This document shows positions 4,154 through 44,127 of a stretch of DNA of 64,000 bases, piece after piece; the stretch's first letter is position 1; each line of letters begins with the position of its first letter. The translations under genes and the position numbers were made by a program. The notes under the pieces were generated by a model. That model was not told the origin of the DNA. It saw nothing but the letters and a program-made list of their open reading frames with translations, and ran no database searches. Source of the stretch: an uncultured Pirellulaceae bacterium (GTDB taxonomy: Bacteria > Planctomycetota > Planctomycetia > Pirellulales > Pirellulaceae); assembly GCA_964636985.1 (NCBI GenBank), contig CAZWSX010000003.1, forward strand, positions 361,627-425,626, read 5' to 3'.

Positions 4154-4251
4154 CATCGCCGCAGCGTTAGAATCATCACCATTCGCAAAAAACCGCAATA
4201 CTCTTCAACCCAGCACTCTTTAATCGACGCCAGTTGATCCAACAATAATCC

Positions 4252-19877: not shown

Positions 19878-20735
19878 TCACTGAAAGCAATTTGATGTGT
19901 CAAACGAAATCTTAAATGGCTTACCTTCTCTTTCTCTTCTCACGATATCCATCAATTCGAAGAATCGCTCGCAACCATTTACGGGAACTGGCATAAACGC
20001 GCCCAGATGACTTACGGTTTCCCTTTTCACGGTGACAACAACAAGAAAAAACTCAACGTCGTTGACTTTGCCCGGTACAACGAAGTGCGGTTCGTCGATC
20101 GGGAGATCGTTGCTTTCCAAGCCAATGATCAGAGATTTGAGGTCCGGATGTGCCATAGTTGGGTCCTGAATCCGCCGTCTAATCGCTTGAACAATTTCGG
20201 CCGCTGCATATTCGTATCCATAGCACTTAAACAAAGCGAGATAAGCAGCACGCAGGATAGCTGTGTGAAAGACGTTTTTTGAATAGTTTGTGTAAGACAC
20301 GTTGAACCCAGAGACTTCGCCGGCCTTCATCACACGCACAACGTGTTGGAGCGCCTTTGGGTCAGTGGCACGGCCCACAACCCGAAAGTTCTTGGTTTCC
20401 GTTCCGCACGCCAGATCAGCAGCAATCCGTTGACCGTTAACATCGAGCATAGTCCTGAGCGTTCCAAAACCACGAAAGACATCTGACAGTTCCTGAAACC
20501 TGACGAGGTGCGAGTCGAGGGAACTGCCTTGTTCGTTATTGCATCTTGTACACGTCAACACGACTGCCTTGCCGCCCACCGCGCCGGGAACTACGTGGTC
20601 TATCGATAATCCGTCAAAGTGAGTTTGCTGCCAACAAAGTGGGCATATGAGTGCATCATCCGTGGTTGAAAGTTGTGCCGCGCGCTGGCTGGACGCATAG
20701 TGCTCAAACATTCTCCGATTTGTTCTCGCATTCAT
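19878..20735 (-). CDS. HNH-motif nuclease-like protein with ~200-aa C-terminal domain of unknown function
   Basis: CPLCWQQ...SIDHVVPGAVGG...LTCTRCNNEQG fits the CxxC...DH..P...CxxCN HNH signature. Spot counts give ~50% GC here against ~60-65% in the flanks. Confidence 0.55.
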   Translation of the reverse strand: MNARTNRRMFEHYASSQRAAQLSTTDDALICPLCWQQTHFDGLSIDHVVPGAVGGKAVVLTCTRCNNEQGSSLDSHLVRFQELSDVFRGFGTLRTMLDVNGQRIAADLACGTETKNFRVVGRATDPKALQHVVRVMKAGEVSGFNVSYTNYSKNVFHTAILRAAYLALFKCYGYEYAAAEIVQAIRRRIQDPTMAHPDLKSLIIGLESNDLPIDEPHFVVPGKVNDVEFFLVVVTVKRETVSHLGAFMPVPVNGCERFFELMDIVRREREGKPFKISFDTSNCFQ

Positions 20736-20777: not shown

Positions 20778-21296
20778 TCAAAGTGAAGTCGCGGTCCGGG
20801 CTAACTCGCCAGCATTGAACAGCAATCTTTCAGGTCGCCCAGCGGCCACACAATTTGATTGTTGCAGATCGACCGTCACGTGTTGCGGCGTCAACTCCTG
20901 AGGATCGTTAACTTCGCAGACCGTGCCGATGATTTTATCAGCAGATGCGATGTCTCCTTCCGAACGAATGAGTACCGAGGCAAGCGTCTCCGTAACATCA
21001 TGCCACTTATCGGCGAGAAACTCCGTAGGTGACTGCAAAGCCGCTACGATGCCCTTCCAACTTGGGCTATCGCGGTCGGCAGCTTCGAACACGAATCCTT
21101 CATTTTGTCTGGCGCGCATCCACTCGCCGACGCCCTCCACAGGCAACAACTCCAAGAAGCTCACCGGAACATAGGGGCCGCAAGCCTGATAGAGCCGAAA
21201 GCTCGCGACGTCGACTCCAATGGCCTGGGGAACACGGCCAACGACGTAATGATTTCCATCCGTGTCGCAGATCATGATCAGTTTGAAACGCCACAT
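20778..21296 (-). CDS. hypothetical protein; co-oriented 42 nt upstream of the HNH-motif gene
   Basis: 172-aa ORF in the same lower-GC block with no recognisable motif. Likely co-transcribed with 19878..20735. Confidence 0.4.
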   Translation of the reverse strand: MWRFKLIMICDTDGNHYVVGRVPQAIGVDVASFRLYQACGPYVPVSFLELLPVEGVGEWMRARQNEGFVFEAADRDSPSWKGIVAALQSPTEFLADKWHDVTETLASVLIRSEGDIASADKIIGTVCEVNDPQELTPQHVTVDLQQSNCVAAGRPERLLFNAGELARTATSL

Positions 21297-21788: not shown

Positions 21789-21861
21789 GTATCCCTGTCA
21801 GGAGTCGAACCTGAACTACGACCTTCGCAGGGTCGCGTGCGAATCCTTAACACTTCAGGGA
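21789..21861 (-). tRNA. tRNA-Arg (anticodon GCG)
   Basis: 73-nt cloverleaf on the minus strand. Acceptor GTCCCTG/CAGGGAT, D-stem GTGT/GCAC, AC stem CGACC/GGTCG with loop CTGCGAA, T-arm TCAGG-TTCGACT-CCTGA. No encoded CCA. Confidence 0.65.
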
Positions 21862-21869
21862 CAGAAAAA

Positions 21870-21942
21870 ATCGCCAGTTCAGGAATCGAACCTGATCTTC
21901 CAGCTTCGGAGGCTGACGTGCGTATCCAGCACACCCACCGGC
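21870..21942 (-). tRNA. tRNA-Arg (anticodon CCG)
   Basis: 73 nt. Acceptor CGCCGGT/ACTGGCG, AC loop CTCCGAA, T-arm TCAGG-TTCGATT-CCTGA. A paralog of the preceding gene, with the same D- and T-arms. Confidence 0.7.
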
Positions 21943-22008
21943 GTTTCTTGCGTTCAATGGTTTTTGCCACAGAGGGCTCAAAGGTTGAGAATCGAAGGGG
22001 AGAAGGGG

Positions 22009-22047
22009 TGAGTGGGAGGTAGGGAGCAAAAGATTTTCACTCCCACT
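22009..22047. repeat. inverted repeat within a CT/GA-rich spacer of the tRNA array
   Basis: GAGTGGGAG ... CTCCCACTC, a 9-bp stem with a 21-nt loop, embedded in polypyrimidine tracts (ctccttcaacaccccatctcacattcttctcc). Confidence 0.4.
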
Positions 22048-22115
22048 CTCCTTCAACACCCCATCTCACATTCTTCTCCATGTCCTCCGTGCTCTCTGTG
22101 TTTAAACAAACCGAA

Positions 22116-22186
22116 GCACGAGCGCGAGGAGTCGAACCCCGTCCAACAGTTTTGGAGGCTGTCTGCTCACCCAGGAGCGTCACTCG
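22116..22186 (-). tRNA. tRNA-Trp (anticodon CCA) probable; the 31-39 pair is a C-A mismatch
   Basis: Acceptor ACGAGTG/CGCTCGT, D-arm GCTC-CTGGGTGA-GAGC, AC region GACAGC-CTCCAAA-ACTGTT (the loop matches the classical Trp CUCCAAA), T-arm CGGGG-TTCGACT-CCTCG. Confidence 0.5.
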
Positions 22187-22263
22187 TAAATTTTTACTTC
22201 CCCTCTTCTCCGTTCCCTCCGTGTCTCCGTGGTGAAACTCTCTCCACGCTCTGCGGCAAACAA

Positions 22264-22349
22264 GCGGAAGGCGAGGGAGTCGAACCCACATCGCCGTGAA
22301 GCGAACCACGTTAGCACCGTGGCCCAGCCAACCGTATCTGGCTGCCTTC
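22264..22349 (-). tRNA. tRNA-Ser (anticodon GCT), class II with long variable arm
   Basis: 86 nt. Acceptor GGAAGGC/GCCTTCC, D-stem CCAG/CTGG, AC stem CCACG/CGTGG with loop GTGCTAA, long extra arm, T-loop TTCGACT. Confidence 0.75.
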
Positions 22350-22360
22350 CTCAAGGATCA

Positions 22361-22434
22361 ATAGCCGAAGTGGGAGTCGAACCCACAAGCACCAGACTCT
22401 CGATCTGGCCGCTTTGCCAATTTGCGTACTCGGC
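22361..22434 (-). tRNA. aberrant tRNA: anticodon GAG (Leu) in a short-variable-arm class I body with C33
   Basis: Acceptor AGCCGAG/TTCGGCT, AC stem CCAGA/TCTGG with loop TCGAGAG, T-arm GTGGG-TTCGACT-CCCAC. Only 74 nt, so there is no long variable arm. Confidence 0.45.
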
Positions 22435-22527
22435 TATGTGTGATTTGCCACAGCGAGAATCGCTCCCCATCTCCCATTCTCCCTCTCCCCCATTCTCCTC
22501 CCCCGACTCTTTGGCAAAATCCCGAAC

Positions 22528-22600
22528 ATGACTCGTGCGGGAATCGAACCCGCGTTCTCAGCGTGAGAGGCTGAAGTCCTGTACCGTTAGACGAACGAGC
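22528..22600 (-). tRNA. tRNA-Glu (anticodon CTC)
   Basis: 73 nt. Acceptor GGCTCGT/ACGAGTC, D-arm GTCT-AACGGTACA-GGAC (Glu-like), AC stem TCAGC/GCTGA with loop CTCTCAC, T-arm GCGGG-TTCGATT-CCCGC. Confidence 0.75.
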
Positions 22601-22610
22601 CAAAAGAAGA

Positions 22611-22691
22611 GTGCGCCGGGCAGGAGTTGAACCCGCAATGCCAAAGCGAGTGGTTTACAGCCACCTGGACTTGCCCATGTTCCAACCGACG
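22611..22691 (-). tRNA. tRNA-Tyr (anticodon GTA), class II
   Basis: 81 nt. Acceptor GCGTCGG/CCGGCGC, AC stem GGTGG/CCACT with loop CTGTAAA, extra arm, T-loop TTCAACT. Confidence 0.7.
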
Positions 22692-22724
22692 CATGCTTGC
22701 CTTGAAACACTGTGTTTTGCGATG

Positions 22725-22798
22725 ATGGCCCGAGTGGGATTCGAACCCACAGCATCTTCGGGTTTAAGCCAAAGTGGTCTGCCGGTTGCCTACCGAGC
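22725..22798 (-). tRNA. aberrant tRNA: anticodon TAA (Leu/UUA reader) in a class I body
   Basis: 74 nt. Acceptor GGCTCGG/TCGGGCC, AC stem TTTGG/CCGAA with loop CTTAAAC, T-arm GTGGG-TTCGAAT-CCCAC. The D-arm is poorly paired and there is no long variable arm. Confidence 0.45.
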
Positions 22799-22816
22799 CG
22801 CGGCGAAGCTCACCAA

Positions 22817-22887
22817 ATAGTCTCGGATGGAATCGAACCATCGTTTTCGGCGTGTCATACCGGCGCCCTGCCATTGGACGACGAGAC
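22817..22887 (-). tRNA. tRNA-Val (anticodon GAC)
   Basis: 71 nt. Acceptor AGTCTCG/CGAGACT (perfect), D-arm GTCC-AATGGCA-GGGC, AC loop ATGACAC, T-arm GATGG-TTCGATT-CCATC. Confidence 0.7.
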
Positions 22888-22907
22888 TGCATTCAGACCC
22901 CTTGAAA

Positions 22908-22977
22908 ATTGCAGGCCCCGGATTCGAACCGGGCAGCGCGGCCTTATGAGGGCCGCCCAGGCGCCAGCCAAACCTGC
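22908..22977 (-). tRNA. tRNA-Met or tRNA-Ile(lysidine) (anticodon CAT); short, poorly paired D-arm
   Basis: 70 nt. Acceptor TGCAGGT/GCCTGCA, AC stem CGGCC/GGCCG with loop CTCATAA, T-arm CCCGG-TTCGAAT-CCGGG. Confidence 0.55.
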
Positions 22978-23012
22978 ATAGCGTGTGGTTCGATCAAGGA
23001 TCGAACCCCTAA

Positions 23013-23094
23013 GTCGTCGAGGGGAGAGTCGAACTCCCATGCCTAACGGCGTTCCGTTCTGAGCGGAGTGTGTCTGCCAGTTTCACCACTCGAC
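23013..23094 (-). tRNA. tRNA-Leu (anticodon CAG), class II
   Basis: 82 nt. Acceptor CGTCGAG/CTCGACG (perfect), 3-bp D-stem with an 11-nt loop, AC loop CTCAGAA, extra arm GCC..GGC, T-arm GGGAG-TTCGACT-CTCCC. Confidence 0.7.
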
Positions 23095-23226
23095 GAGTGA
23101 CAAGAGAGGAGGAACGAGACATTGACCCGCTGAAGGTTCGCGCGGCATGCAAGAGAACATTTCGCGAAGCCTCAACCGGTCCAACTTATCGCTGCCCTCT
23201 CTCCCTTGGCGGCGTTGCTAGCGCCA

Positions 23227-23298
23227 GCGACTCATGTGGGATTCGAACCCACCTACTCGGATTGAAAGTCCGATGACCTCACCAGAAGTCAAATGAGC
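23227..23298 (-). tRNA. tRNA-Glu (anticodon TTC)
   Basis: 72 nt. Acceptor GGCTCAT/ATGAGTC, D-arm GACT-TCTGGTGA-GGTC, AC stem TCGGA/TCCGA with loop CTTTCAA, T-arm GTGGG-TTCGAAT-CCCAC. Confidence 0.8.
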
Positions 23299-23339
23299 CA
23301 TGTCTTCTCTACTGTCTACTGCTCTCCTATCTACTGTCT

Positions 23340-23365
23340 ATTTTTGGACGCCAGAGCGTCCAAAA
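23340..23365. terminator. bidirectional intrinsic terminator hairpin downstream of tRNA-Asp
   Basis: TTTTGGACGC-CAGA-GCGTCCAAAA: 10-bp stem flanked by T and A runs. It is preceded by tctactgtct-type direct repeats. Confidence 0.6.
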
Positions 23366-23369
23366 ATCA

Positions 23370-23444
23370 GCGTCCCTGGCGGGATTTGAACCCGCGGTCT
23401 CCACCGTGACAGGGTGGTGAGTACTCCTGGCTACTCTGCAAGGA
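23370..23444 (-). tRNA. tRNA-Asp (anticodon GTC)
   Basis: 75 nt. Acceptor GTCCTTG/CAGGGAC, D-stem GAGT/ACTC, AC stem CCACC/GGTGG with loop CTGTCAC, T-arm GCGGG-TTCAAAT-CCCGC. Confidence 0.8.
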
Positions 23445-23464
23445 CATGTGTCAACAAAACTAAG

Positions 23465-23535
23465 GTGGAGCCATCGGGAGTTGCACCCGAATCTCCGGTT
23501 TGCAAGACCGGCGTCTTCCTGTTGGACGATAGTCC
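23465..23535 (-). tRNA. tRNA-Ala (anticodon TGC), degenerate: G3:U70 present but an A4·C69 mismatch and an atypical T-loop TGCAACT
   Basis: Acceptor GGGACTA/TGGCTCC, AC stem CCGGT/ACCGG with loop CTTGCAA, T-arm TCGGG-TGCAACT-CCCGA. 3' trailer ACCT. Confidence 0.5.
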
Positions 23536-23652
23536 CATGTTTTGAGCAGTGGATCAGGAGATCAGTAGACCGAGTTGAGTAGCCGAAGAGTCATTGCATT
23601 CAACGTCCTCTCTGCTCTTGCTGCTTTCTCTACTGTCTCATCTCAACTCTCT

Positions 23653-23678
23653 ATTTTTGGTCGCAAGAGCGACCAAAA
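23653..23678. terminator. bidirectional intrinsic terminator hairpin downstream of tRNA-Ser(CGA); covarying paralog of the 23340 hairpin
   Basis: TTTTGGTCGC-AAGA-GCGACCAAAA. The A>T change in the stem is compensated on the other arm, and the same tctactgtct prefix is present. Confidence 0.6.
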
Positions 23679-23680
23679 AT

Positions 23681-23768
23681 GCGGGAGCCGTGGGACTCGA
23701 ACCCACAAGCCAGCATTAACCAGCCGCCTGTTTTCGAGACAGGTTCCTCATCCGATCCGGATGACTCC
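23681..23768 (-). tRNA. tRNA-Ser (anticodon CGA), class II
   Basis: 88 nt. Acceptor GGGAGTC/GGCTCCC, AC stem CCTGT/ACAGG with loop CTCGAAA, long extra arm, T-arm GTGGG-TTCGAGT-CCCAC. Confidence 0.75.
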
Positions 23769-23859
23769 CGTGAAAAGCGATTTCGTGCGGCCACACATTG
23801 CGAGGGAAGGCCTGCCCCCAAACCTTCGCCCGCAACACGTTGAACGCACTGCCATCGCA

Positions 23860-23934
23860 GTTGCGAAGACTGGAATTGAACCAGTGACAACCTGATTCAA
23901 AGTCAGGCATCGGTACCAACACCGAATCCTTCGC
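23860..23934 (-). tRNA. tRNA-Gln (anticodon TTG) probable
   Basis: 75 nt. Acceptor TGCGAAG/CTTCGCA (U1-A72, as in bacterial Gln), AC stem CCTGA/TCAGG with loop CTTTGAA, T-arm ACTGG-TTCAATT-CCAGT. Confidence 0.6.
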
Positions 23935-23950
23935 AATAATTACCGACCCA

Positions 23951-24023
23951 GCTGCGAGGGCTGGAATTGAACCAGCGTCACGGCGGTTAACAGCCCCCAG
24001 TCCTTACCAACAAGGAACCTCGC
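23951..24023 (-). tRNA. tRNA-Asn (anticodon GTT) probable; G·G mismatch in AC stem and extra nucleotides between the D- and AC-arms
   Basis: Acceptor TGCGAGG/CCTCGCA, D-stem CCTT/AAGG, AC GGGGG-CTGTTAA-CCGCC (the classical Asn loop), T-arm GCTGG-TTCAATT-CCAGC. Closely related to the neighbouring Gln gene. Confidence 0.5.
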
Positions 24024-24039
24024 AAGAATCTTGTTCTCA

Positions 24040-24110
24040 AAGCGTCTAGCGGGAATTGAACCCACGCCTCCGACTTGGCACGCCAGCGCGCTACCTCTAC
24101 GCCATAGACG
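24040..24110 (-). tRNA. tRNA-Gly (anticodon GCC)
   Basis: 71 nt. Acceptor GCGTCTA/TAGACGC (perfect), D-arm GCGT-AGAGGTA-GCGC, AC stem CTGGC/GTCGG with loop GTGCCAA, T-loop TTCAATT. Confidence 0.65.
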
Positions 24111-24149
24111 CATTTGCTACATCGACCGAATTGTCAAACATCGCTTTCA

Positions 24150-24221
24150 GAGCACCGGGTGGGAGTCGAACCCACGTACCTGCATTACGGGTGCAGAGTC
24201 CTAGCCGCTAAACGACCAGTG
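24150..24221 (-). tRNA. tRNA-Thr (anticodon CGT) with unusual C33
   Basis: 72 nt. Acceptor GCACTGG/CCGGTGC, D-stem GTTT/GGAC, AC stem CTGCA/TGCAG with loop CCCGTAA, T-arm GTGGG-TTCGACT-CCCAC. Confidence 0.55.
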
Positions 24222-24234
24222 CATTTGTTCGGTG

Positions 24235-24270
24235 ACCCGTCGAGCGCAAGCTTTTGACCGCGCTCGACGG
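24235..24270. terminator. strong hairpin between tRNA-Lys and tRNA-Thr (12-bp stem)
   Basis: CCCGTCGAGCGC-aagcttttgacc-GCGCTCGACGGG is a perfect inverted repeat. Confidence 0.45.
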
Positions 24271-24302
24271 GGACTGTATTTCCGTGCCTCAAAATCTTCA
24301 CA

Positions 24303-24375
24303 GTGGGACTCGACGGACTTGAACCGCCACCGACTCGGTTAAAAGCCGAGCATGCTGCCGCTAACACCTGAATCC
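24303..24375 (-). tRNA. tRNA-Lys (anticodon TTT)
   Basis: 73 nt. Acceptor GGGATTC/GAGTCCC, AC stem CTCGG/CCGAG with loop CTTTTAA, T-arm GGCGG-TTCAAGT-CCGTC. Confidence 0.7.
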
Positions 24376-24398
24376 CATTGGTTTCGTTCATGCTGTCA

Positions 24399-24470
24399 GT
24401 GGTCTGGGAGGCGCTCGAATCCTCGTATCCTGTTCTTCAGACAGGCGCTACACCGTCTCAGCTACCAGAC
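24399..24470 (-). tRNA. tRNA-Phe (anticodon GAA) with a non-canonical T-arm (4-bp stem, loop ATTCGAGCG)
   Basis: Acceptor GGTCTGG/CCAGACC (perfect), D-arm TAGCTGAGACGGTGTAGC, AC stem CCTGT/ACAGG with loop CTGAAGA. Confidence 0.6.
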
Positions 24471-24873
24471 CGTTTCGTTTCAAACCTTCCCTCCGCGCAC
24501 GAAAAAAGCCCGACATCCTGCGGACGCCGGGCTTGGCGAGGGAACTCGCTGCCAAGCAGACGTCACGTGATAAGTCGTAGTTCAAACTGTTCGGACCAAC
24601 CCAGCAGGTTGCTTCGCTCGCCTAAAGCGAGCGCGCTATCTAATTGGCTTTGATAGGCCAACTGTTTGCCGGATTGATTACTGGAACGTTTCATGACTTG
24701 GTCTCCCTGCTTTGGCTCAGCGAAAAACTCCGCCAGCACGCGACAGGGGATTTTTTGATTTGGGGAACCACTCGAAAGGGGTTTTTCACCGTCCTACGAC
24801 GGCGTCTTACTAATACGATGCTGCGAACCCAAGATTTGTTCGCGCGCCGGAGAAAAAAAGTTTGGGTGGCACT

Positions 24874-33947: not shown

Positions 33948-36900
33948 CTACTTCTTAGCGGCCGGCTTTATCTTGGGCTTTTTGCCTGGCTTGCCGGCGT
34001 CACCTGCGGGAAGAGGTTCGCCCACCACAGCGTCCTCGCCCGGTAGCGCTCCGACCTTCGACTTCTTGCCTGCGGGATCAGGCTTTTCGGCAGGCAACTT
34101 TTCGCCAGCGGGCATTTTTTCGCCCACTTTGCCTGCTGGTTTTTTTCCTCCCTTGTCGGCAGGCGGATCGTCACGGTCTTCTTTTGCAGCCTTGGCAGCA
34201 GCCGGCTTGAGCGCGTCCTCAGGGATGTCGACCGCCGGTAGGGGCTCTTGGCCGGGAATCGATCCACGATCGACCAGGCAGTAGGCCGCCCAGAAGAATG
34301 GATGGGTCGCCTTCGGAGCAGAATCCTTGACGTCGCTCTTGATGCGTGGTTCGTCCTTGTACGCAACGGGCGAATCCATGGCTAATAAAACGCTGCGTTG
34401 CCAGGCCGCGTCGGCCGGCATGTTCGGCTGCTCCTGGACGAACTCGCGGACCAGGTCGACGGCGGTTTTGCCGCCGGGCCGCCAGCGCGAGATCAACAAG
34501 GTCTGCGTCCCTGACGACATCAAAGCACAAGCCGAAAGGAAGACATCGTCACCAGCGGCGGGCTTTTTGATGGAGGCCTCGGCTGCCGTGTGGAACCCAG
34601 GGAGCACAACCAGATTGGGGCCGGCCATGGGGAGCGCCATCCAGTCGGTGAGGTCGGCTCCCTTGCGGGCCTTGTCGATCGGCAACGGCGACCAGGCGTA
34701 CGGGTTCTTGCTGGGTTCTTCGATATCTTGGAAGACCACCACACGATCGCAGATCGAGGCGTAAACCGGCGCCGGGATCGAAATCGGCTGCGCGATGCGT
34801 TCCGCTTGCGCGGTTGCCTTGGAAAGATCTTCGAAGGCAGTCGCTGCGACGCTGACATCATCGCGCGGAAATAGTTTTCCGGTCACCACGGCAGTGCGGC
34901 CTTCGCCCCGGTGGCCAATGGCATCGGGCAACGACAATCCCAGGGTCGGGGCGTAACGAACGCGCGTTTGAGCAATGAGCGGAGGAGCATCGGACCCGTC
35001 GCCTGCGACGAGGCACTCGAACGGCAGGTACCACAGGGCCCCGTCGGGGACCACGATTACTTCTTCGTACTTCGACCAACTATCGTCTTTGGCGTTGTTG
35101 GAGAGCGTTTTGAGCAGTCCCTTGGCGATGGCCTTCCAGTTGTTGCCGGCGATCGTTTCCGCTGGAACGTTGCCGTTCTTATCGAGATTGCCCATGTCTT
35201 TGAGCAATTTGGCGACCTCGGCCTTGAGCTTCGTCGGCGTTCCGACTTGAAAGGCGGACAGCTTATCCTTAGTCAACGCGAAGCCGTGCGTGGCGGTGCT
35301 GGTCGACGCGTAGTAAAGCATCAACTGCCGGCTGTTCATGCGTTTGCGAACTTCGGCGAGCGTGACCGCCGGCGGCATGATGAAGTCGGCCGCTTCGCGA
35401 CGGACCGCCATGTTCCGGAGAATCGTTTCCTGTTCTTCGGAAACCTTGGTCAGCTCCTGCAACAGCTTGGTCTGCTGTTCTTTTTGGGCGCGATCCTCGG
35501 GCATCAAAGGCAATGCGTGTAACGCCCCGCGGATCTCGTCGGCCTTGGTCATCAAGGGCTGGTAGCCAGGATAGTTTTGCAACAGCAAAGTGCGCTGCGT
35601 TTGCGTTCGGGGCGAGAGGGCGGTCACAGGCGATTCGAGAACTGCCCGCAGCGCCGGCAGACGTCCTCCCAAGGGAAGCGAGGCATAGAATCGGTGCCGC
35701 TTCATGCGATCGGCGACTTCGAGCGCGCGATCGTAGTCTTTGCGAGTAATCAGCACTTCCATCCACTTCTGGTAAGCCGCCGTGTAATCGCTCGACGAAA
35801 CGGCCAGCGTGTCGAACGGATGAATCGCCCAATCGGCGCCCGTAGGGTCGCGCAGCAATTGGGAGTACATCATGTCGACCGCGCGGTCGGAAAAGGCCTT
35901 GTCGGTGTGGTACTTGGTGGCCATGGTGATCTGAAAGAGCCATGGCGACGAGGATTGCTGAAACTTGAGGGCCGGCGTCAGGGCCGAGACGCCCGCGACC
36001 TGATTTCCCGACGCGAAGGCCAGACGAGCTTGCTCCAACTGGAGCCGCGCGTTGAACTTCGAGGGGGTCATGTCCTTGATCTCTTTTTGCGCCTGCTGAA
36101 GAATCGCGTCGGCTTCGGCGGTGCGTCCCAAGAGATTCAGGTTTTCCCCCGCTAACAAAAGAAGCGACGCGTGCAGCGCGCGGTACTCCGATTTTTTGGC
36201 CCAAGTGCCGGCCGGCACGAGCGGGGCAAACGGCTCACCGGTTCCCGCGAGGAGCCAGGCCAGTTGAGCACCACGGAAAGCCTCCTCCATTTCCTCGGCG
36301 ATGCCAAACTGCGCCGCGACGTAGGTAGCTTCCATAAAGCAGGTGCCGGCCTGGTCGTACTTCCCCTCTTCCAGCGCAAGTTGACCCAACTCGTTGAAAG
36401 CCGTGGCCGTGAGGGGGTGGTAGTAAACGTCGTTCGACTTGAGCGACTTGGTCAGCTCGCCGACGGCTTGCGCGGGCTTTCCCAAGGCGGCATAGGCACA
36501 GCCAAGTTGGACCTCGATCCAGCACTGCGACCAGTGATTCGGCGGCGCAGGTCGGGCCTTGAGAGCATTGACCAGCCGGTCGATGTTCGGATCGTGTTCG
36601 CTCAAGGGTCCTAAGATCTGACGGCGATGGCGAATGGCCGTGCACATGGCGCGGACGATTTCGGCGCAGCGGATAGGGATCGCTTGGCGCTGGGCCATCA
36701 AGAAGTTGTTGCCGTTGCCTAACCCGGGCCCCTGCATGCCTACGCTGTCGTAGATCATGTTGTAACGCTCGGCAAAGCGGCCGGGAATCACCGCTTCGAC
36801 CGGCGCTCCCCACGGTGTCGCCACGCCTGCGACAGGCGCGGGCTCGATGAGCACCGGAAAATCGATCTTCAACATCCAGTTGGAGTTGTCGTTGAACAGC

Positions 36901-37259
36901 TTGATGGCGGCATCGAAACTCTGAAGTGCTTTCGGCAAATTGCCTTGCTGATAGTGGCACTCGCCAATCATCGCGAGGAACGCGGCGGAATCGACCCACC
37001 GCGAATCAGCACCTCGAATCGCGCCTTTGAGGCCATCTTCGTACGATTCGAGGGCCCCTTCGTAGTTGCCTGCCAGCATGGCCGTTCGACCAGACTGAAA
37101 CTGCAGGTTGGGGACTTGGCCGATATTTGTTTGCGCGAGCGCAGGGCGAGTCGATGCCAGGCAGATTGCCGCGACCCCCAAAACCAATGCCGATGCGGAG
37201 CGAAACCAAACGCGGCTCAAAGCGGGCGTCATCTTATAACTCTCCGGCAAGAAACGCAT
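33948..37259 (-). CDS. secreted TPR-repeat / CHAT-domain-like protein with Lys/Pro/Ala-rich C-terminal tail
   Basis: Signal peptide, multiple TPR-like helical repeats, then a region with VIVVPDGALWYLPFECL ... LSACALMSSG that resembles the CHAT protease His/Cys blocks. The last ~120 aa are low-complexity K/P/A/G. Confidence 0.55.
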   Translation of the reverse strand: MRFLPESYKMTPALSRVWFRSASALVLGVAAICLASTRPALAQTNIGQVPNLQFQSGRTAMLAGNYEGALESYEDGLKGAIRGADSRWVDSAAFLAMIGECHYQQGNLPKALQSFDAAIKLFNDNSNWMLKIDFPVLIEPAPVAGVATPWGAPVEAVIPGRFAERYNMIYDSVGMQGPGLGNGNNFLMAQRQAIPIRCAEIVRAMCTAIRHRRQILGPLSEHDPNIDRLVNALKARPAPPNHWSQCWIEVQLGCAYAALGKPAQAVGELTKSLKSNDVYYHPLTATAFNELGQLALEEGKYDQAGTCFMEATYVAAQFGIAEEMEEAFRGAQLAWLLAGTGEPFAPLVPAGTWAKKSEYRALHASLLLLAGENLNLLGRTAEADAILQQAQKEIKDMTPSKFNARLQLEQARLAFASGNQVAGVSALTPALKFQQSSSPWLFQITMATKYHTDKAFSDRAVDMMYSQLLRDPTGADWAIHPFDTLAVSSSDYTAAYQKWMEVLITRKDYDRALEVADRMKRHRFYASLPLGGRLPALRAVLESPVTALSPRTQTQRTLLLQNYPGYQPLMTKADEIRGALHALPLMPEDRAQKEQQTKLLQELTKVSEEQETILRNMAVRREAADFIMPPAVTLAEVRKRMNSRQLMLYYASTSTATHGFALTKDKLSAFQVGTPTKLKAEVAKLLKDMGNLDKNGNVPAETIAGNNWKAIAKGLLKTLSNNAKDDSWSKYEEVIVVPDGALWYLPFECLVAGDGSDAPPLIAQTRVRYAPTLGLSLPDAIGHRGEGRTAVVTGKLFPRDDVSVAATAFEDLSKATAQAERIAQPISIPAPVYASICDRVVVFQDIEEPSKNPYAWSPLPIDKARKGADLTDWMALPMAGPNLVVLPGFHTAAEASIKKPAAGDDVFLSACALMSSGTQTLLISRWRPGGKTAVDLVREFVQEQPNMPADAAWQRSVLLAMDSPVAYKDEPRIKSDVKDSAPKATHPFFWAAYCLVDRGSIPGQEPLPAVDIPEDALKPAAAKAAKEDRDDPPADKGGKKPAGKVGEKMPAGEKLPAEKPDPAGKKSKVGALPGEDAVVGEPLPAGDAGKPGKKPKIKPAAKK

Positions 37260-37438
37260 TTGGCGAGGGAGGAAGATCCAAGATCACTCGCCTTGATGCG
37301 TTAGCGCACGGTAAACCCCTGGCCGGGCGCACTTCCATCATATCGCTTGTTGCACTTAGGTGCGCTGGGGAAAACCATCCTAAAGCGGGGGTGCCTGGTA
37401 AAGGTGCATACCTAAAGTGCTGGGCCAAAAGCGCCGGA

Positions 37439-38548
37439 TCACATCCCGCTCAATGTAAAACTAGTCTTGAACAAGTTTTTCATCGTTTCGCCGGCTAACC
37501 AGACACCTTGGCGAAGCTTGGCCGAGAGTTTGGGTGCGGAGATTCGCAAGCTGACGTTGGGGCGAGGCACGGCATTCCAGCGGCTGGCCTCGATGGTGTG
37601 AGCGTGCAGCAAATCGACGGCAAAGCGGCCCTGCTCAAGGGCTTGTTTCAAGAGGAACCAGGGGAGAATCGATTCCAATTCGGGATCGTCCATCAGTGGA
37701 TCGACCACGCTGCCGTAGGCGAAGGTCACGCCCGCGGAACAGGGACGATGCTCGACGGCGACCGTGCGGCCGTCGATTTCGAGCCACGTCATCTGGAGGC
37801 GCCCTTCGGTCATCCAGCGACGGCTGAGATCGCGGAGAAAATAGACGGCTTGGTCGCCGGCAAAGACGGGCAGCGTCTTGCCATACTCGCGCGGCGTTTG
37901 CCCGAAGTCGACCAGGGATCGCCAGGCGTGCTCGAAGTCTTCGTCGCTCGTGACAGCGCGGACCTTGGCGCGGCCGGTGTTCAAGTACTTCTCTTCCACG
38001 GCCTCGATCACTTGGCGCTGCGCCTTGTCGAGCGATGCCAGGTAATCCTCGACAGACGAAGGCAGCTCGATCCGCCAATAGGGCTGGCTGGTCTGCCGCA
38101 GCACGTTGCAGTGTTCGTCCGAGAGACGACCGGCCAGCTTGGCAACCGCGCGATCGCTGGCAGCGATGCCGTCGAAGGCGAGCAAGTTCCATCCGTATTG
38201 CGCGGAGTCGGCGCAAGAGACTAGCCAAGCCGAAAGGGCATCAGCGGCGGCGCCTTCGTGCTCGACGGTCGACAGGATCGAGCGATAGTGTCCTGGCGCA
38301 TCGATACCGCCCCACAGGTGGAGCGATGCGCCAAGGGCTGCGCTTGTTTCGCGGTAGAACGGCGCCAAGCCAACCAGTTCGCCTGAATCGTCGAGCACGC
38401 CCGCGATGACGCTTTGTCGATTGGCTCCGAAGGCCTTCCACCAGGCATCGTGCCAGGTCCAACTGCGAAAGGGAACGCCGCGTGCGACGCAGTCCCATCG
38501 TGCCGCCAGTGATCCGAATTCGCTGATATCGAAGATGCGAACAAGCAT
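37439..38548 (-). CDS. GNAT-fold acyltransferase-like protein (FemAB/CelD-like)
   Basis: 369 aa. The C-terminal half has the acyl-CoA N-acyltransferase-like pattern TWLEIDGRTVAVEH...FAYGSV. Assignment is by resemblance only. Confidence 0.45.
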   Translation of the reverse strand: MLVRIFDISEFGSLAARWDCVARGVPFRSWTWHDAWWKAFGANRQSVIAGVLDDSGELVGLAPFYRETSAALGASLHLWGGIDAPGHYRSILSTVEHEGAAADALSAWLVSCADSAQYGWNLLAFDGIAASDRAVAKLAGRLSDEHCNVLRQTSQPYWRIELPSSVEDYLASLDKAQRQVIEAVEEKYLNTGRAKVRAVTSDEDFEHAWRSLVDFGQTPREYGKTLPVFAGDQAVYFLRDLSRRWMTEGRLQMTWLEIDGRTVAVEHRPCSAGVTFAYGSVVDPLMDDPELESILPWFLLKQALEQGRFAVDLLHAHTIEASRWNAVPRPNVSLRISAPKLSAKLRQGVWLAGETMKNLFKTSFTLSGM

Positions 38549-38858
38549 GATTCGTCTCGCGGGGAGGACTTCGCACCGAAGTGCGAAGCGAGTTTAAAGA
38601 GGCGAGGGGGATGAAGCGGACGCAACGACGTATCTCAATCTTGACCCCTGTAATGTGCGGCGGCATGTGCAAAGGCGATCCGCGAGGTGTTACTTCGTGC
38701 CATCGCGCGGCACCATCGGCATAGCCGCTACATCCCGACGGAGGGCTGCGGGATGTCTCGCCATCGCGACGGCGGGTGACCGCCTGCCACTGGATCGCGA
38801 ACTACCCTTTCTGCGCCCACGAATTTGGCTGCTCCAACGAGAAGGGCGAGGAAAGAAC

Positions 38859-39647
38859 ATGTCGCGGCGAATCGAATTGTTTGGAATCCGCATCGACGCC
38901 ATGCGTCTGCGCGAAGCGGTCACAAAGTTGTCGCAGTGGCTCGACGAGGAACAACGAAGCTGCCGTTACGTGGTGACGCCCAATGTCGATCACGTGGTGA
39001 TGTTTCAGGAGCGCGCTGACTTGCGCGCGGTGTATCGCGAGGCCTCGATGGTGCTGGCCGATGGCGCGCCGGTGGTGTGGTCGTCGCGGCTGCTAGGCAA
39101 ACCGGTTCCGGAACGCGTGGCTGGCTCCGATCTGACGCCGGCGATTTTTCAAAGCATGGTCGCAACCCGGAAGCTGCGGACGTTCTTACTAGGTGCTGGG
39201 CCCGGTGTTGCCGAACGAGCGGCGGATAACATTCACAAGCAGTGGCCGGGTGTCGAGGTCGTTGGATGCTACAGCCCGCCGATGGGCTTTGAAAAGAACG
39301 AAGCCGAGAATGCCAAGATCATCCAGCTGGTGAACGAGGCCGATACCGAGCTACTTGTGGTTGGCCTGGGCGCACCGAAGCAAGAGTTGTGGATTCACAA
39401 GCACGCCCGTCAGCTGCGCGTTCGTGTGGCCCTGTGTGTGGGAGCGACGATCGATTTCCTGGCTGGCGAAAAACCGCGGGCACCAAGATGGATGCAAAAG
39501 GTGGGGCTGGAATGGCTTCACCGCGTCGCTTCCGAGCCGCGCCGCCTTTTCAAACGCTACGCACGCGATGCGATGATCTTTCCGCAACTAGTGTGGCGGC
39601 AATGGCGGTCGCCGAAGGCTTTCGCTGGTTTGCGTCGCTGGAAATAG
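38859..39647 (+). CDS. WecB/TagA/CpsF-family glycosyltransferase
   Basis: MSRRIELFGIRIDAMRL...YVVTPNVDHVVM...LADGAPVVW...LLGAGPGVAE...VGLGAPKQELW matches the family block order. GAGGAAAG RBS before the ATG at 38859. Confidence 0.75.
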   Translation: MSRRIELFGIRIDAMRLREAVTKLSQWLDEEQRSCRYVVTPNVDHVVMFQERADLRAVYREASMVLADGAPVVWSSRLLGKPVPERVAGSDLTPAIFQSMVATRKLRTFLLGAGPGVAERAADNIHKQWPGVEVVGCYSPPMGFEKNEAENAKIIQLVNEADTELLVVGLGAPKQELWIHKHARQLRVRVALCVGATIDFLAGEKPRAPRWMQKVGLEWLHRVASEPRRLFKRYARDAMIFPQLVWRQWRSPKAFAGLRRWK

Positions 39648-39725
39648 CGAACCTTGTCTCGACTCGCGCTGTCGCTTCCGTCAAACTAAATGGCACTTCA
39701 CGTGTCCCAGACGGAGTAGAAGGCG

Positions 39726-40301
39726 ATGTTTATCCCGATCGATAACGAAACCTTCTACCGAACCCGCGCCGAGCTTGAAGCCGGTCTCGATCACATCCGC
39801 GAGTCGCCGCGCGATCTGGGGCGGTTGGAGATGATTGTCGTTCGTCCTAAGAAGAACAAGCGATTGCAGCTTGGGTGGTGCGAGGTCTCGCCTGAGGGTG
39901 GCCTCGAAGGAGACAACTGGGCCTTCGATTGTTGGAAGACGTTGCCTGACGGAACATCCGATCCGAGCGTGCAAGTGACGCTGATGAACTCGCGTCTGGC
40001 GCAGCTGGTGGCCGTCGAGCGATCGCGCTGGCCGCTGGCAGGCGATCAGCTCTATGTCGACCTCGACATCAGCTACGAGAATTTTCCCGTGGGCCAACGA
40101 TTCACCATTGGCGCGGCCGAGTTCGAGATCACGAGCGAGTTGCACACCGGCTGCAAGAAGTTCATCGCGCGCTATGGCGTTGATGCCATGCAGTTCGTGA
40201 ACAAGGGAGAAGGGAAGCGGCTGAATCTCCGAGGCACCTACGCCCGCGTTGTCCGCGCGGGGACGATTCGCTGCGGCGATGTGGTGCGAAAAAGATCGTA
40301 A
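39726..40301 (+). CDS. MOSC-domain protein (YiiM-like)
   Basis: 191 aa with GDNWAFDCW..., ...LYVDLDIS...GQRFTIGAAEFEITSELHTGCKKF...GTYARVVRAGTIRCGD, typical of the MOSC beta-barrel with a conserved Cys. Confidence 0.65.
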   Translation: MFIPIDNETFYRTRAELEAGLDHIRESPRDLGRLEMIVVRPKKNKRLQLGWCEVSPEGGLEGDNWAFDCWKTLPDGTSDPSVQVTLMNSRLAQLVAVERSRWPLAGDQLYVDLDISYENFPVGQRFTIGAAEFEITSELHTGCKKFIARYGVDAMQFVNKGEGKRLNLRGTYARVVRAGTIRCGDVVRKRS

Positions 40302-40386
40302 AGATTCTGTCTGAAAGAGTTTTTCCTTCTCACGAAAAACGCCACGCCGCCCCATCGCTGGTCGTCGCAGTTGTCGTATTGAACCT

Positions 40387-41448
40387 TTAGGGCCTCTTCT
40401 CAGGATGCCCGACGATCCACGCGTGAACCGCGAGCACGAGCGCGATGGCAGAGTGTCGACAACTATCCACCAACTGCGCGCTTATCTTTCCGCTGAGTGG
40501 AAAGTTGTCGCCAATGGTGACGGCGGGTAAATCGGGGATTCCCGCTGTCTGCTTTAAGAACTCTTGATCGACGATACCACGCTTATGCACCAATAAATTG
40601 CGAACCGCAGCCGCACATCTCAAGCGAGGACGTTTTAGAATGTCGACGATCGCCGACCCCTGCTTGGAGAATGCCACGGAATAGGCATCCTGAATATCTG
40701 CAAGTGCGCGAAACGACACGTCCTTTTTCTTGTCCTTCAAGATCGTCCCCATTTTTTTACCGACATCAAATCCATTTTTCAGTAAGTCGTCGAACGAAAT
40801 CGTGGTCTTTCCCCCGAGCGCCGCCAATGTTGTGGGGTGTGCGTTAAGCGCCGATTCCCACAGATCCTCGCTAAGCGTTTCAAACACGATCCAGCCATGA
40901 ATAACGAGCGATGAGAAATAGCCGTCTAATTGGCGCTGTCGACGGGGATACTCTCTTCCCGCGTAGGCGGCAACCTCCCCAGTCTCGATTAAGCCAACGC
41001 TCACTGGCATATCTTCAATTCCGAGAGCCCATCGCTGAAGGGAATCGCCGACCACTCGGGCGGTTTCCAGCGTTTCCTCAGTGACTTCGCCGACGAATTC
41101 ACCAGTTGATGTATTTGGGTTTCGATTGAGCGGGGCACAGATGAGAGCGTAGGCTTGCTGATACAGCCTGCCAAAATCAAAAATGGATTGAGGCGTTCGA
41201 GCGTATTCCCAAAGCCGCTCCTGATTCTGGTGGAATGCTTTGGCAACATCCTCTAGGCCGCTTAGTCGAAACGACCCGTTGTCCAGTGCTTCCTGGAAAC
41301 GTTTCCCGTTCAATTCCAGACCGTCGTCTTCGATCGTAAACCCAGTTCCTCCATAGATCGCAGCGCGAAAGTCTTTGACTCTGTCATGTCGCCGCTGCAC
41401 ATCGGCGGGCGTTACGTGGGCCTTCTCTTCCATAGCTTCGCTCCCCAC
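40387..41448 (-). CDS. hypothetical protein with C-terminal Rx4H (HEPN-like) motif; possibly abortive-infection (AbiD/F-like) in a lower-GC block
   Basis: 353 aa. C-terminus has ...RCAAAVRNLLVHKRGIV... (R-N-x3-H). Spot counts give ~40-50% GC against ~60-65% in the flanks. No other motif recognised. Confidence 0.35.
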   Translation of the reverse strand: MGSEAMEEKAHVTPADVQRRHDRVKDFRAAIYGGTGFTIEDDGLELNGKRFQEALDNGSFRLSGLEDVAKAFHQNQERLWEYARTPQSIFDFGRLYQQAYALICAPLNRNPNTSTGEFVGEVTEETLETARVVGDSLQRWALGIEDMPVSVGLIETGEVAAYAGREYPRRQRQLDGYFSSLVIHGWIVFETLSEDLWESALNAHPTTLAALGGKTTISFDDLLKNGFDVGKKMGTILKDKKKDVSFRALADIQDAYSVAFSKQGSAIVDILKRPRLRCAAAVRNLLVHKRGIVDQEFLKQTAGIPDLPAVTIGDNFPLSGKISAQLVDSCRHSAIALVLAVHAWIVGHPEKRP

Positions 41449-41756
41449 AGACGTGCAAAGCCGCCATGATAGGTGTAGCCATAGCGAAAAGCACCAGTGG
41501 CAAGTTCGGTGCGAATCAACACGCGAAACCTGCTGCCACGAAGAGGAGATGTGCTTGTAGCGGCGCTCTTTTTCGAATCGTAGATTGCGGCCGGAGGCTC
41601 ATTCACTTTAGGGAAAAAATGTAAGCGTCTTCCCCTCTCTCCTGCCTTACGACATAATGTCGTAAATCATCCGCCCGCGATTTCTGGCGCGGATCTGCAT
41701 TGGTCCTCTGGTGAATTGTTCCTGGTGAATTGTCCTTGGTGCGTGGGGGACGTCGC

Positions 41757-42617
41757 ATGAACGTGGCACTTTCGATCGCCGTGGCGTTAGCGCTCGGGCA
41801 AGCGGGCGGGGACGACACTAGCAAAGACGACATCGGCAACGGGGAACAGAAGCGGCTGCAAGAGGCCGGACTGGCTTTCGTGAAGCAATCGGCGGCGAAG
41901 TACGAGTTCACGCAGCGGGGCAAGAAGGTGAAGCTGATCGAGACGCCGCTCTTGCGCTGGAACAACACCGTTGTCGAAGAGCAAGACGCACTTCTGTTTA
42001 TGTGGACGCTCGATGGACGCCCAGTGGCTGCGGCGCAGTTCTTTGCTCAGAAGCAGCGGTGGCTCCATGAGTTCCAATCGATGACGTTCGGCGACAAAGA
42101 GGGAGCCTTCGCCGGGCGGTATGACGGGACCGAATTCTGGTCGCCGAAAAAGGGAGGGCAGTCCGAGATTGCGTTGCCGCCGATCAAACCGGCGGATAGC
42201 ACCGCGCGGCGATTGCAGCAAATGAAGGAGATCGCCGATTCCTTCACCGGCGACGATCACGTGGTGACCGAAGGGGGAGCGAAAACAACCTACGCCCTGA
42301 GAGTTTTACCGCGGCCGATCTATCGATACCGCGATGTTCCGAACTTTCTCGATGGTGCTATCTTCGCGATGGTGCAAGACAACAACCCGGAAATCCTGAT
42401 CACAATCGAATGCCCCGCGGGAGACGATGCGAAATACCGCGTCGGCCTGACGCGGATGACATCGTACGAGATCGAGATCCAGCGCGATGGCAAAGAAGTC
42501 TTGCGGCTGGCGCGGGAGGTTTTTCCGTCGAGCGATCGATCGCATACGTACTTCATGCGATCGGTCGATCGGAACGCGGCGTTAGAAATGCTGGCGCGGC
42601 CGCGACGGGGCGAGTAG
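41757..42617 (+). CDS. secreted hypothetical protein
   Basis: GGGGGA RBS 8 nt before the ATG at 41757. Signal peptide MNVALSIAVALALGQAGG; no recognised domain. Confidence 0.5.
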   Translation: MNVALSIAVALALGQAGGDDTSKDDIGNGEQKRLQEAGLAFVKQSAAKYEFTQRGKKVKLIETPLLRWNNTVVEEQDALLFMWTLDGRPVAAAQFFAQKQRWLHEFQSMTFGDKEGAFAGRYDGTEFWSPKKGGQSEIALPPIKPADSTARRLQQMKEIADSFTGDDHVVTEGGAKTTYALRVLPRPIYRYRDVPNFLDGAIFAMVQDNNPEILITIECPAGDDAKYRVGLTRMTSYEIEIQRDGKEVLRLAREVFPSSDRSHTYFMRSVDRNAALEMLARPRRGE

Positions 42618-42780: not shown

Positions 42781-44127
42781 TCATTCAGGCACGAAGATGA
42801 ATTCAGGATTGAAATACTCTTTCGCGTTTGCCGGCGTAAATCGCATCGGGCATTTTTTCTCAAAGAGCTGCAGGTTCTCTTGCCGGCGTTTTTGCTTGTA
42901 TGCCGGCGCTTTGTCGAGTGCACTCTTCTGATATCGTATCGCATCGTCCCATTCGCCCACCTCGGCATGCGCCGTGGCTAGCGCAGCGATCGCCGAATCG
43001 TTCTGCCACTCAGTCATCTCGCAAGCTTTGGTCGCCAACTCGATTGCTCTCTTTCCGTCGCGCATGCCGTCGTCCGGACTGGCCGCGAGAAAAAATGCCA
43101 TTTCTACAATCGGCCTTGGATCGCCGGGGAACAATTGGCAACACGTTTCGTGCTCGTGAATCGCCTTGCGATAGTTACGTTGCCGCTCGTAGATATGGGC
43201 TCGTATCTGGTACGACCCAAGAATGTTTGGGTTCAACTCGATCGATTGAGAGATGTCCTTCAGCGCATTGTCGAGGCCTTCCTTCTCAATCCAACAAGCG
43301 GCCCGTGCATGGTAGGCTGAATCTGATCGCGGGTTGATTCGAATCGCTTGATCTGTATCGCGCAGGGCTTTGTCGAGGTTCCTCAATTGGAACCAACAGA
43401 ACGCGCGAGTGCGGAAGGCTCCGTCGTTTTGAGGATGAATTCGAATGGCTTCGCTTAGGTCGTCAATTGCCGACTTGTAATTGCCACGCTTAAACGAAAT
43501 ATCTCCCCGGTTTTTGAACGCTTGGTCACACTGAGGATCGAGTTCAATAGCCCGGTCATAGTCTTGAACTGCTTCGTCCAGTTCTTGGTTGAGCGCCTTG
43601 TAATATCCGCGGCGTAAGTAGACAAACGGGTCGGTCGGATCGAGACGGATCGCTTGCGTGAGATCCTCGTAGGATGAAAGGAATTCTCCTCTCATCGCTC
43701 TTGCAATCGCCCGATCGACAAAGGCCTCCGAAAATGTCGGGGCGAGCCGAATCGCTTCGTTCAGACTATAAATGCCCTTAAGCGATTCTCTCTTGCCAAG
43801 CCAAGCTAGCCCGCGAAGTCGCCACGCCTTCGCATTCGTTGGATCAGTTTTGATCTGCTCGTCGGATAATGCCAGGGCCTCGTCCATGTCCATGAGGTCG
43901 GCTTTTTTCACCCACGCGCGTTGACACCACACGCGGTCGTTTTGCACGACCTCGACTTTGTCCGGACGGCTCAGGTAGCGAACGTCTACAGGTAAACCGT
44001 TGTGCGTTGGGACGACGCCAGGTTTGAGAAGAACCATTTTGCCAATCCAAGGATCGAGTTCCTCGGCCGAGGCAATGAGAGGAGCGAGAGCGATCGCGAG
44101 CAAGAGTCCATAGCGCAGCACGGCCAT
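42781..44127 (-). CDS. secreted TPR-repeat protein
   Basis: Signal peptide MAVLRYGLLLAIALAPLIASA, then more than eight 34-aa repeats with the W-LG-Y / A-F-A-P pattern (for example AIRLDPTDPFVYLRRGYYKALNQELDEAVQDYDRAIELDPQ). Confidence 0.7.
   Translation of the reverse strand: MAVLRYGLLLAIALAPLIASAEELDPWIGKMVLLKPGVVPTHNGLPVDVRYLSRPDKVEVVQNDRVWCQRAWVKKADLMDMDEALALSDEQIKTDPTNAKAWRLRGLAWLGKRESLKGIYSLNEAIRLAPTFSEAFVDRAIARAMRGEFLSSYEDLTQAIRLDPTDPFVYLRRGYYKALNQELDEAVQDYDRAIELDPQCDQAFKNRGDISFKRGNYKSAIDDLSEAIRIHPQNDGAFRTRAFCWFQLRNLDKALRDTDQAIRINPRSDSAYHARAACWIEKEGLDNALKDISQSIELNPNILGSYQIRAHIYERQRNYRKAIHEHETCCQLFPGDPRPIVEMAFFLAASPDDGMRDGKRAIELATKACEMTEWQNDSAIAALATAHAEVGEWDDAIRYQKSALDKAPAYKQKRRQENLQLFEKKCPMRFTPANAKEYFNPEFIFVPE

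Follow-up and report, generated by a model that had tools for sequence, protein, structure and literature searches.

What does the gene between a MOSC gene and a secreted-protein gene in this stretch of planctomycete DNA (64,000 nucleotides, hereafter the window) encode, and how did it come to be there? The sequence-only reading had proposed a lower-GC insertion, horizontally acquired, with a C-terminal Rx4H motif of the HEPN type and a possible kinship with the abortive-infection proteins AbiD, AbiF and AbiU. The 353-aa open reading frame and its motif (R283-H288) are present on the minus strand as described, and so are the flanks, a MOSC gene (PF03473) to the left and, to the right, an ORF with a signal-peptide-like N-terminus, which had no Pfam match. 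With residues numbered on the 353-aa frame, the features of the locus are as follows:

39726..40301, plus strand: MOSC gene (PF03473), left flank
40293..41613, no strand: inserted unit of 1321 bp, missing from the syntenic locus of a close strain (L104)
40387..41448, minus strand: ORF of 353 aa starting at GTG, from the ORF listing
40390..40956, minus strand: C-terminal region, residues 165-353, widely conserved, HEPN helices 2-4
40602-40585, minus strand: codons of the Rx4H motif, R283-N284-L-L-V-H288, at the C-terminal end of helix 3
40879..40881, minus strand: codon of E190, the invariant upstream acidic residue in a long helix (from the alignment; putative role by analogy with PMC3710099)
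40957..41448, minus strand: N-terminal helical region, residues 1-164, from the alignment and the model
41757 (or 41730)..42617, plus strand: ORF of 286 aa (or 295 aa) with a signal-peptide-like N-terminus, right flank
42781-44127, minus strand: TPR gene, 448 aa, GC3 0.60, the second variable gene in the MOSC-carA interval

The true start of the HEPN ORF is probably the ATG at 41433 rather than the GTG, giving a protein of 348 aa. Gene callers use this ATG on identical contigs, and it is the likelier start because a Shine-Dalgarno sequence (GGGGAG) lies 7 nt 5' of it. The 348-aa product is identical to a database protein (P0001). Promoter and terminator scans of the HEPN locus in the window returned background levels only.

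The composition of the gene is atypical, but more mildly so than had been thought. Its GC content is 0.535, compared with 0.588 ± 0.025 in windows of the same size (only 3.2% of which are as low), and its GC3 is 0.58, against 0.715 ± 0.063 for 39 ORFs of the window, so that both measures fall approximately two standard deviations under the window values. Across 100-bp spots the GC content ranges from 0.41 to 0.60; the figure of ~40–50% given earlier therefore describes the lowest spots only, and other parts of the gene reach 0.60.

A comparison with close strains settles how the gene arrived. The MOSC protein has a cluster at 90% identity with members from other samples, among whose contigs we found two (L103 and L104) that keep the gene order DUF1501, epimerase, TPR/CHAT, Acetyltransf_6, WecG, MOSC. 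L104 is 96.6% identical in nucleotides to window 36001-40292 and 88.9% identical to window 41614-42586. In this strain MOSC is followed directly by the secreted-protein gene, whose product shares 93.6% identity with that of the 286-aa gene of the window. The two flank alignments meet at L104 positions 8563-8567, which are common to both, and window 40293-41613 is therefore extra. These 1321 bp comprise the coding sequence, 94 bp on its 3' side and ~165–180 bp on its 5' side. The more distant L103, with 78% identical flanks, also lacks the segment. Hence the horizontal acquisition proposed from the sequence is borne out: the empty site proves a real insertion, and this insertion is later than the split from the strain with 96.6% identical flanks. 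MOSC homologues at 76% and 61% identity were uninformative as to synteny.

At the junctions we noted only an AAAAA microhomology and, perhaps, a degenerately duplicated MOSC 3' end; inverted repeats and a clean target duplication are absent there, and direct repeats at the ends of the insert were at chance level. The coding end of MOSC was altered by the insertion, its last codons reading VVRKRS* in the window (40285-40301) and VVQKV* in the empty site (L104 8560-8573). Farther to the right, the place before carA that the low-GC3 TPR gene occupies in the window is taken in L103 by an unrelated gene of 286 aa; the MOSC-carA interval is therefore a small strain-variable spot. The 286-aa gene of the right flank was considered as a partner of the HEPN gene and rejected: it is native to the locus, being present in the empty-site strain, and a 286-aa gene that neighbours the HEPN homologue P0003 is unrelated to it.

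Elsewhere in the window, 19 tRNA genes (ARAGORN; 16 by Rfam) are packed into 2.7 kb on the minus strand (21789-24471). The GC content of this stretch is 0.53–0.56, and it adjoins the lowest-GC3 ORFs of the window, at 19878-20735 (0.52) and 20778-21296 (0.60). The array deserves mention since tRNAs are what many HEPN toxins cleave.

Next, we considered whether the motif marks a genuine HEPN protein. It lies within the peptide AAVRNLLVHKRG, residues 280-291 of the 353-aa ORF. In an alignment of 145 representatives, which share 24–47% identity with the query, there are six columns without any variation: E190, W197, G234, F260, R283 and H288. R283 and H288 are likewise invariant in a smaller alignment of 22 sequences, and N284 is kept by 90% or more of the sequences in both, thus making R-N-x3-H the most conserved feature of the family. 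Among 167 retrieved proteins, R-[polar/small]-x3-H occurs in 161, and asparagine follows the arginine in 153 of the motif occurrences. R and H are conserved in homologues, and the motif is a genuine HEPN-type R-[N]-x3-H, as the sequence-only reading proposed. A HEPN RNase site is defined by a polar residue after the arginine and an acidic residue upstream (PMC3710099). The acidic residue here is E190, within a block W186..FE190..DLWE198.ALN202.HP205; the residue four positions beyond it is E or G instead of K or R, which places it outside the usual Ex3[KR] context.

The AlphaFold2 models are all-helical, with a mean pLDDT of 85.5 at full length and 89.1 for residues 165-353. The predicted elements of the C-terminal region are these:

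residues 168-203: HEPN helix 2, long, bearing E190
residues 204-273: insert, partly helical
residues 274-288: HEPN helix 3, ending with RNLLVH
residues 289-319: loop with a short hairpin
residues 320-347: HEPN helix 4, long, the last

In the published HEPN layout the acidic residue lies on helix 2, an insert separates helices 2 and 3, and the motif ends helix 3 (PMC3710099). The model agrees with this layout: its helices form an up-down bundle of four, the insert follows helix 2 and the motif closes helix 3. HEPN helix 1 is probably supplied, in the model, by the last helices of the N-terminal region; the full-length model aligned to HEPN structures over 116–119 residues, the C-terminal model over 96–97. 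Judging from the conserved residues and the predicted fold, we consider it likely, with good confidence, that the family has a HEPN fold and RNase chemistry.

The family is large and has gone unannotated. A word-indexed search returned 22 relatives of the window protein, and an exhaustive search of cluster representatives returned 1648 at E ≤ 1e-3, 805 at E ≤ 1e-10 and 29 at E ≤ 1e-30; the family thus comprises about 1650 clusters at 50% identity. Most of the 1648 representatives align to residues ~170-353 only, and N-terminal residues 1-164 are kept only in the closer relatives (the 29 at E ≤ 1e-30). Searched against Pfam, NCBIfam and PADLOC (5027 models in the latter), the window protein hit no family at E ≤ 10, Abi_2 and HEPN families of Pfam included. 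With 22 and 145 relatives as queries, Pfam matches were at chance level except for three weak HEPN matches among the 145 (E 0.015–0.02; HepT-like in two members, HEPN_Cthe2314 in one), and no Abi family appeared at E ≤ 0.1 for the 145. The family consensus and its two halves matched nothing in Pfam, PHROGs gave nothing meaningful for the 145 relatives, and sequence and profile searches of the PDB gave no credible match. The proposed relationship to AbiD, AbiF or AbiU was thus not borne out by any significant match to Pfam (Abi_2, HEPN_*), NCBIfam, PADLOC or PHROGs, whether of the protein, its 145 relatives or the consensus. Judged by these profiles, nothing supports placing the protein in a named HEPN or Abi family. 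Collectively, our results make the family a new, unannotated branch of the HEPN superfamily.

We then turned to the surroundings of the relatives. In all, 96 further loci were retrieved from genomes, metagenomes and assemblies, in part with the 22-sequence alignment as query; 83 of them are non-redundant. Their genomic hosts are mostly Planctomycetota, together with Alphaproteobacteria and one Chloroflexota MAG, and in almost all loci the GC3 of the homologue is lower than that of its neighbours (0.51 against 0.86–0.90 in Mesorhizobium). The commonest families among 109 neighbouring ORFs were DDE_Tnp_IS1595 and Zn_ribbon_IS1595, with six ORFs each; PADLOC-type defence matches were sporadic and showed no clear enrichment, and no nucleotidyltransferase family was among the recurrent neighbours. 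By tblastn, 13 of the 41 non-redundant loci with 1.5 kb or more of sequence downstream carry an IS1595 transposase gene no farther than 1.3 kb from the HEPN gene on that side, and 12 of these 13 transposase genes are convergent with the HEPN gene. In at least seven cases, terminal inverted repeats and perfect 8-bp duplications enclose both the HEPN gene and the transposase gene. The inverted repeats share a common core, …AATATACTTGAC.CACC, and the element ends (GGnnAnTAT...) are ones that we take to resemble the ISNwi1 subgroup of ISfinder. The elements and their 8-bp duplications are:

L003: duplication CTTACTTG, element of 2517 bp
L009: duplication CAGATATG
L054: duplication CCTGCAGG
L057: duplication AGAATTAG, element of 2511 bp
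L075: duplication GCTACTGC
L084: duplication GCTGCATC
L096: duplication AAATCATT, element of about 3.2 kb

Insertion sequences with passenger genes, known as transporter ISs (tIS), have been described from two families only, IS1595 and IS66 (TnCentral preprint 10.1101/2021.05.26.445724), and the elements that carry the relatives and their transposases are transporter ISs. The literature on IS1595 passengers and ISNwi1 yielded no paper in which a HEPN or a zinc-finger passenger is named for this IS family; the home of this HEPN family in IS1595 transporter elements is apparently undescribed. Distances among the HEPN proteins and among the transposases showed no significant co-variation (Mantel r 0.16, p 0.15). 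The p-distances are 0.7–0.8 for HEPN and 0.4–0.5 for the transposase, and this faster divergence of the HEPN protein fits a conflict gene.

A second recurrent neighbour is a small zinc-finger gene with two CxxCxGxG motifs. Of 71 non-redundant loci, 25 (35%) have it directly at the 3' end of the HEPN gene. It is co-directional with the HEPN gene in 14 loci and convergent in 11, often overlapping it. Its product scored 36.2 and 39.6 bits against Anti-TRAP (PF15777, cut-off 32) and weakly matched the DnaJ central domain. At least one of the two neighbours, transposase gene or zinc-finger gene, occurs in 36 of the 71 loci. Two full-length relatives illustrate the arrangement: that of L009 (55% identity over the best segment) is enclosed in an intact element together with a zinc-finger gene, and that of L018 (45% identity) has a convergent zinc-finger gene.

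Several loci have peculiarities of their own. In L009 (7983-9057, a Planctomycetaceae MAG) the HEPN ORF ends at 8636 and homology runs on to 9057, the interruption being either a frameshifted copy or an assembly error. In L003 (1-16599) the intact element, with its HEPN, zinc-finger and transposase genes, sits among many short co-directional ORFs that have no Pfam matches, plus a Lar-like restriction-alleviation gene, and the region looks like a prophage. We also noted a small ORF (50–80 aa, no Pfam match) that recurs 3' of the HEPN gene in several IS1595 elements without a zinc-finger gene. It has the motif ...TPFERFKRLTKRVVSVPHxEIQKRE..KNGRK..., and the space from it to the transposase gene holds further, variable cargo ORFs. 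Its occurrences are:

L041 5581-5781, L068 2200-2367 and L038 1033-1221, minus strand: recurrent small ORF
L096 5687-5839, L084 4859-5062 and L075 1609-1851, minus strand: recurrent small ORF

The window copy has none of these surroundings. The 64-kb window contains no IS1595 transposase, no match to the IS1595 inverted-repeat consensus with up to three mismatches, no inverted-repeat pair around the HEPN gene and, by tblastn with four zinc-finger queries, no zinc-finger gene; only 85 bp separate the HEPN stop codon from that of MOSC. The IS context is therefore a property of the relatives only. The two closest homologues, 73% and 68% identical, are solo too, and the nucleotide similarity with the nearest relatives ends where the coding sequence does. 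Between the window gene and these two homologues pN is 0.18–0.21, and among all three genes it is 0.18–0.24, against a saturated pS of 0.79–0.81. The solo clade is therefore kept by selection instead of decaying, and the sequence comparison places the window gene, with this clade, under purifying selection.

The 68% homologue, P0003, has neighbours that may form a small defence cluster. They are, on L005:

135-1061: ORF of 308 aa, no Pfam match
2355-3254: ORF of 299 aa, no Pfam match, carrying 'EPRNCLAHGN', an R-N-x2-A-H motif
3846-5035: gene for an AAA_21 (AbiEii/OLD-like) ATPase

How might these findings fit together? On balance we favour, as somewhat better than an even chance, a reading in which the gene encodes an all-helical HEPN-core protein, likely an RNase, from a family that is typically IS1595 cargo, here inserted solo and kept by selection in a conditionally toxic role. 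The protein would have two parts, both helical, and through its HEPN core it is most likely an endoribonuclease independent of metal. The general base would be H288, with R283, N284 and E190 making up the rest of the site, which would probably lie across a dimer, as in other HEPN enzymes. The typical home of the family appears to be an IS1595-family transporter IS of ~2.3–3.3 kb, in which the HEPN gene stands just inside the left inverted repeat, with the zinc-finger gene usually next and then the convergent transposase gene. In the present host the gene entered the strain-variable spot between MOSC and carA alone, as a 1.3-kb cassette. The RNase would be toxic when activated: within an IS it might be carried for addiction or defence, the zinc-finger protein being its regulator or antitoxin, and in the window host it might act as a stand-alone stress or antiphage effector that is controlled via its own N-terminal region. 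Toxic cargo restrained by a zinc-finger protein would parallel the toxin-antitoxin pairs that Tn3 transposons carry, one HEPN-MNT pair included (PMC7157771).

A bolder version of this reading is plausible, but in our estimate somewhat short of even. It holds that the HEPN RNase and the Anti-TRAP/DnaJ-like zinc-finger protein form an undescribed mobile module, the signature cargo of a lineage of IS1595 transporter elements and an addiction or defence device, from which the window gene derives as a partner-less form recruited by the host at a strain-variable spot. Were the module real, such a toxin-antitoxin-like device would let a minimal IS pay its way.

The strongest competitor is the one first proposed, a single-gene abortive-infection protein of the AbiD/AbiF/AbiU type in which phage infection triggers the HEPN RNase and so kills the cell. 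The HEPN motif and fold, a length close to that of AbiD and AbiF and the solo, horizontally gained position in a strain-variable spot all accord with it, as does P0003, one of the two closest relatives, which adjoins the AAA_21 (AbiEii/OLD-like) ATPase gene and the RNxxAH ORF. However, neither the protein nor its 145 relatives matched Abi_2, any other Abi or HEPN family of Pfam, or the PADLOC models; 2.9 million viral contigs yielded one homologue, tblastn found no match to the window protein in plasmid or phage collections nor to the Mesorhizobium homologue in the plasmid collection, and the main neighbours of the relatives are transposase and zinc-finger genes, not defence genes. We therefore regard a protein of this type as unlikely.

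It is less probable still that the protein is not a nuclease at all, but a helical scaffold that binds nucleic acid or protein, with the arginine and histidine in a binding or structural role and its likeness to HEPN being that of any four-helix bundle. Homology to HEPN at the level of profiles was not found, and a Foldseek search of the PDB with the C-terminal model gave nothing significant (best E 0.4), as such a scaffold would have it. Yet R, H and E are invariant, and N nearly so, across sequences otherwise 25–30% identical, a pattern typical of catalytic residues, and the position of the motif and the pattern of inserts agree with the HEPN description. The idea that the protein is a non-toxic accessory of IS1595 transposition (processing or degrading transposase or antisense RNA, for example), with the window copy left over from a decayed element, draws on the fixed place and orientation of the HEPN gene in many divergent tIS (by the left inverted repeat, convergent with the transposase gene), but is the least probable of all, as approximately half of the loci, the window and its two closest relatives included, lack both transposase and zinc-finger gene, strong purifying selection persists in the solo clade, the window insert has no IS ends, and HEPN diverges much faster than the transposase, as conflict genes do.

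For the host genome the significance is modest, since what separates the close planctomycete strains here is one recently gained, probably RNA-cleaving accessory gene. The family matters more widely. Its ~1650 clusters are invisible to Pfam, NCBIfam, PADLOC and PHROGs, so that annotation and defence-finder pipelines miss it. The recurrent position in IS1595 elements and the zinc-finger partner offer a tractable case for the function of passenger genes in very small transposons, and the partner hints at a possible new type of antitoxin for HEPN toxins. For work on transposon cargo, and for annotating HEPN toxins, the family is a useful starting point.

Among known systems, the HEPN superfamily RNases (Anantharaman et al. 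2013, PMC3710099) share with the window family the R-N-x3-H motif with its polar residue after R, the upstream invariant acidic residue and the helical up-down bundle with a helix 2/3 insert and the motif ending helix 3. Unlike them, the window family is detected by no curated HEPN profile, has the long block W..FE..DLWE.ALN.HP and keeps its acidic residue outside an Ex3[KR] context, and the window protein has an extra N-terminal helical region. AbiD/AbiF (Abi_2, PF07751), AbiU2, AbiV and AbiJ are similar in their ~350 aa, their C-terminal RNxxxH and their existence as single, horizontally moving genes, but the window family has no profile match to them and is not in the phage and plasmid collections, and its relatives go with an IS1595 transposase and a zinc finger, not with defence islands.

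The partner of the relatives resembles Anti-TRAP (RtpA) and the DnaJ cysteine-rich domain in its size (~70–90 aa), its two CxxCxGxG motifs and a score above the PF15777 cut-off. In contrast to Anti-TRAP, it adjoins a HEPN gene, co-directional or convergent and overlapping, has no TRAP or tryptophan context and is absent from the window. As in the IS1595 tIS, the relatives are bracketed by inverted repeats of the IS1595 type with 8-bp target duplications and accompanied by a DDE_Tnp_IS1595 transposase, whereas the window copy lies outside any IS. The HepT-MntA (HEPN-MNT) toxin-antitoxin pairs, among them the HEPN-MNT passenger of the Tn3-family transposon TnSod9 (PMC7157771), differ in that the partner of the relatives is an Anti-TRAP/DnaJ-type CxxCxGxG zinc finger instead of a nucleotidyltransferase, their carrier is an IS1595 tIS instead of Tn3, the HEPN protein of the window family is two to three times larger, and the window copy stands without a partner, its neighbours being the MOSC gene and the secreted-protein gene and no nucleotidyltransferase. 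What HepT-MntA and the relatives have in common is a HEPN RNase that travels with a small adjacent gene as transposon cargo and, possibly, a role in addiction to the element that carries it.
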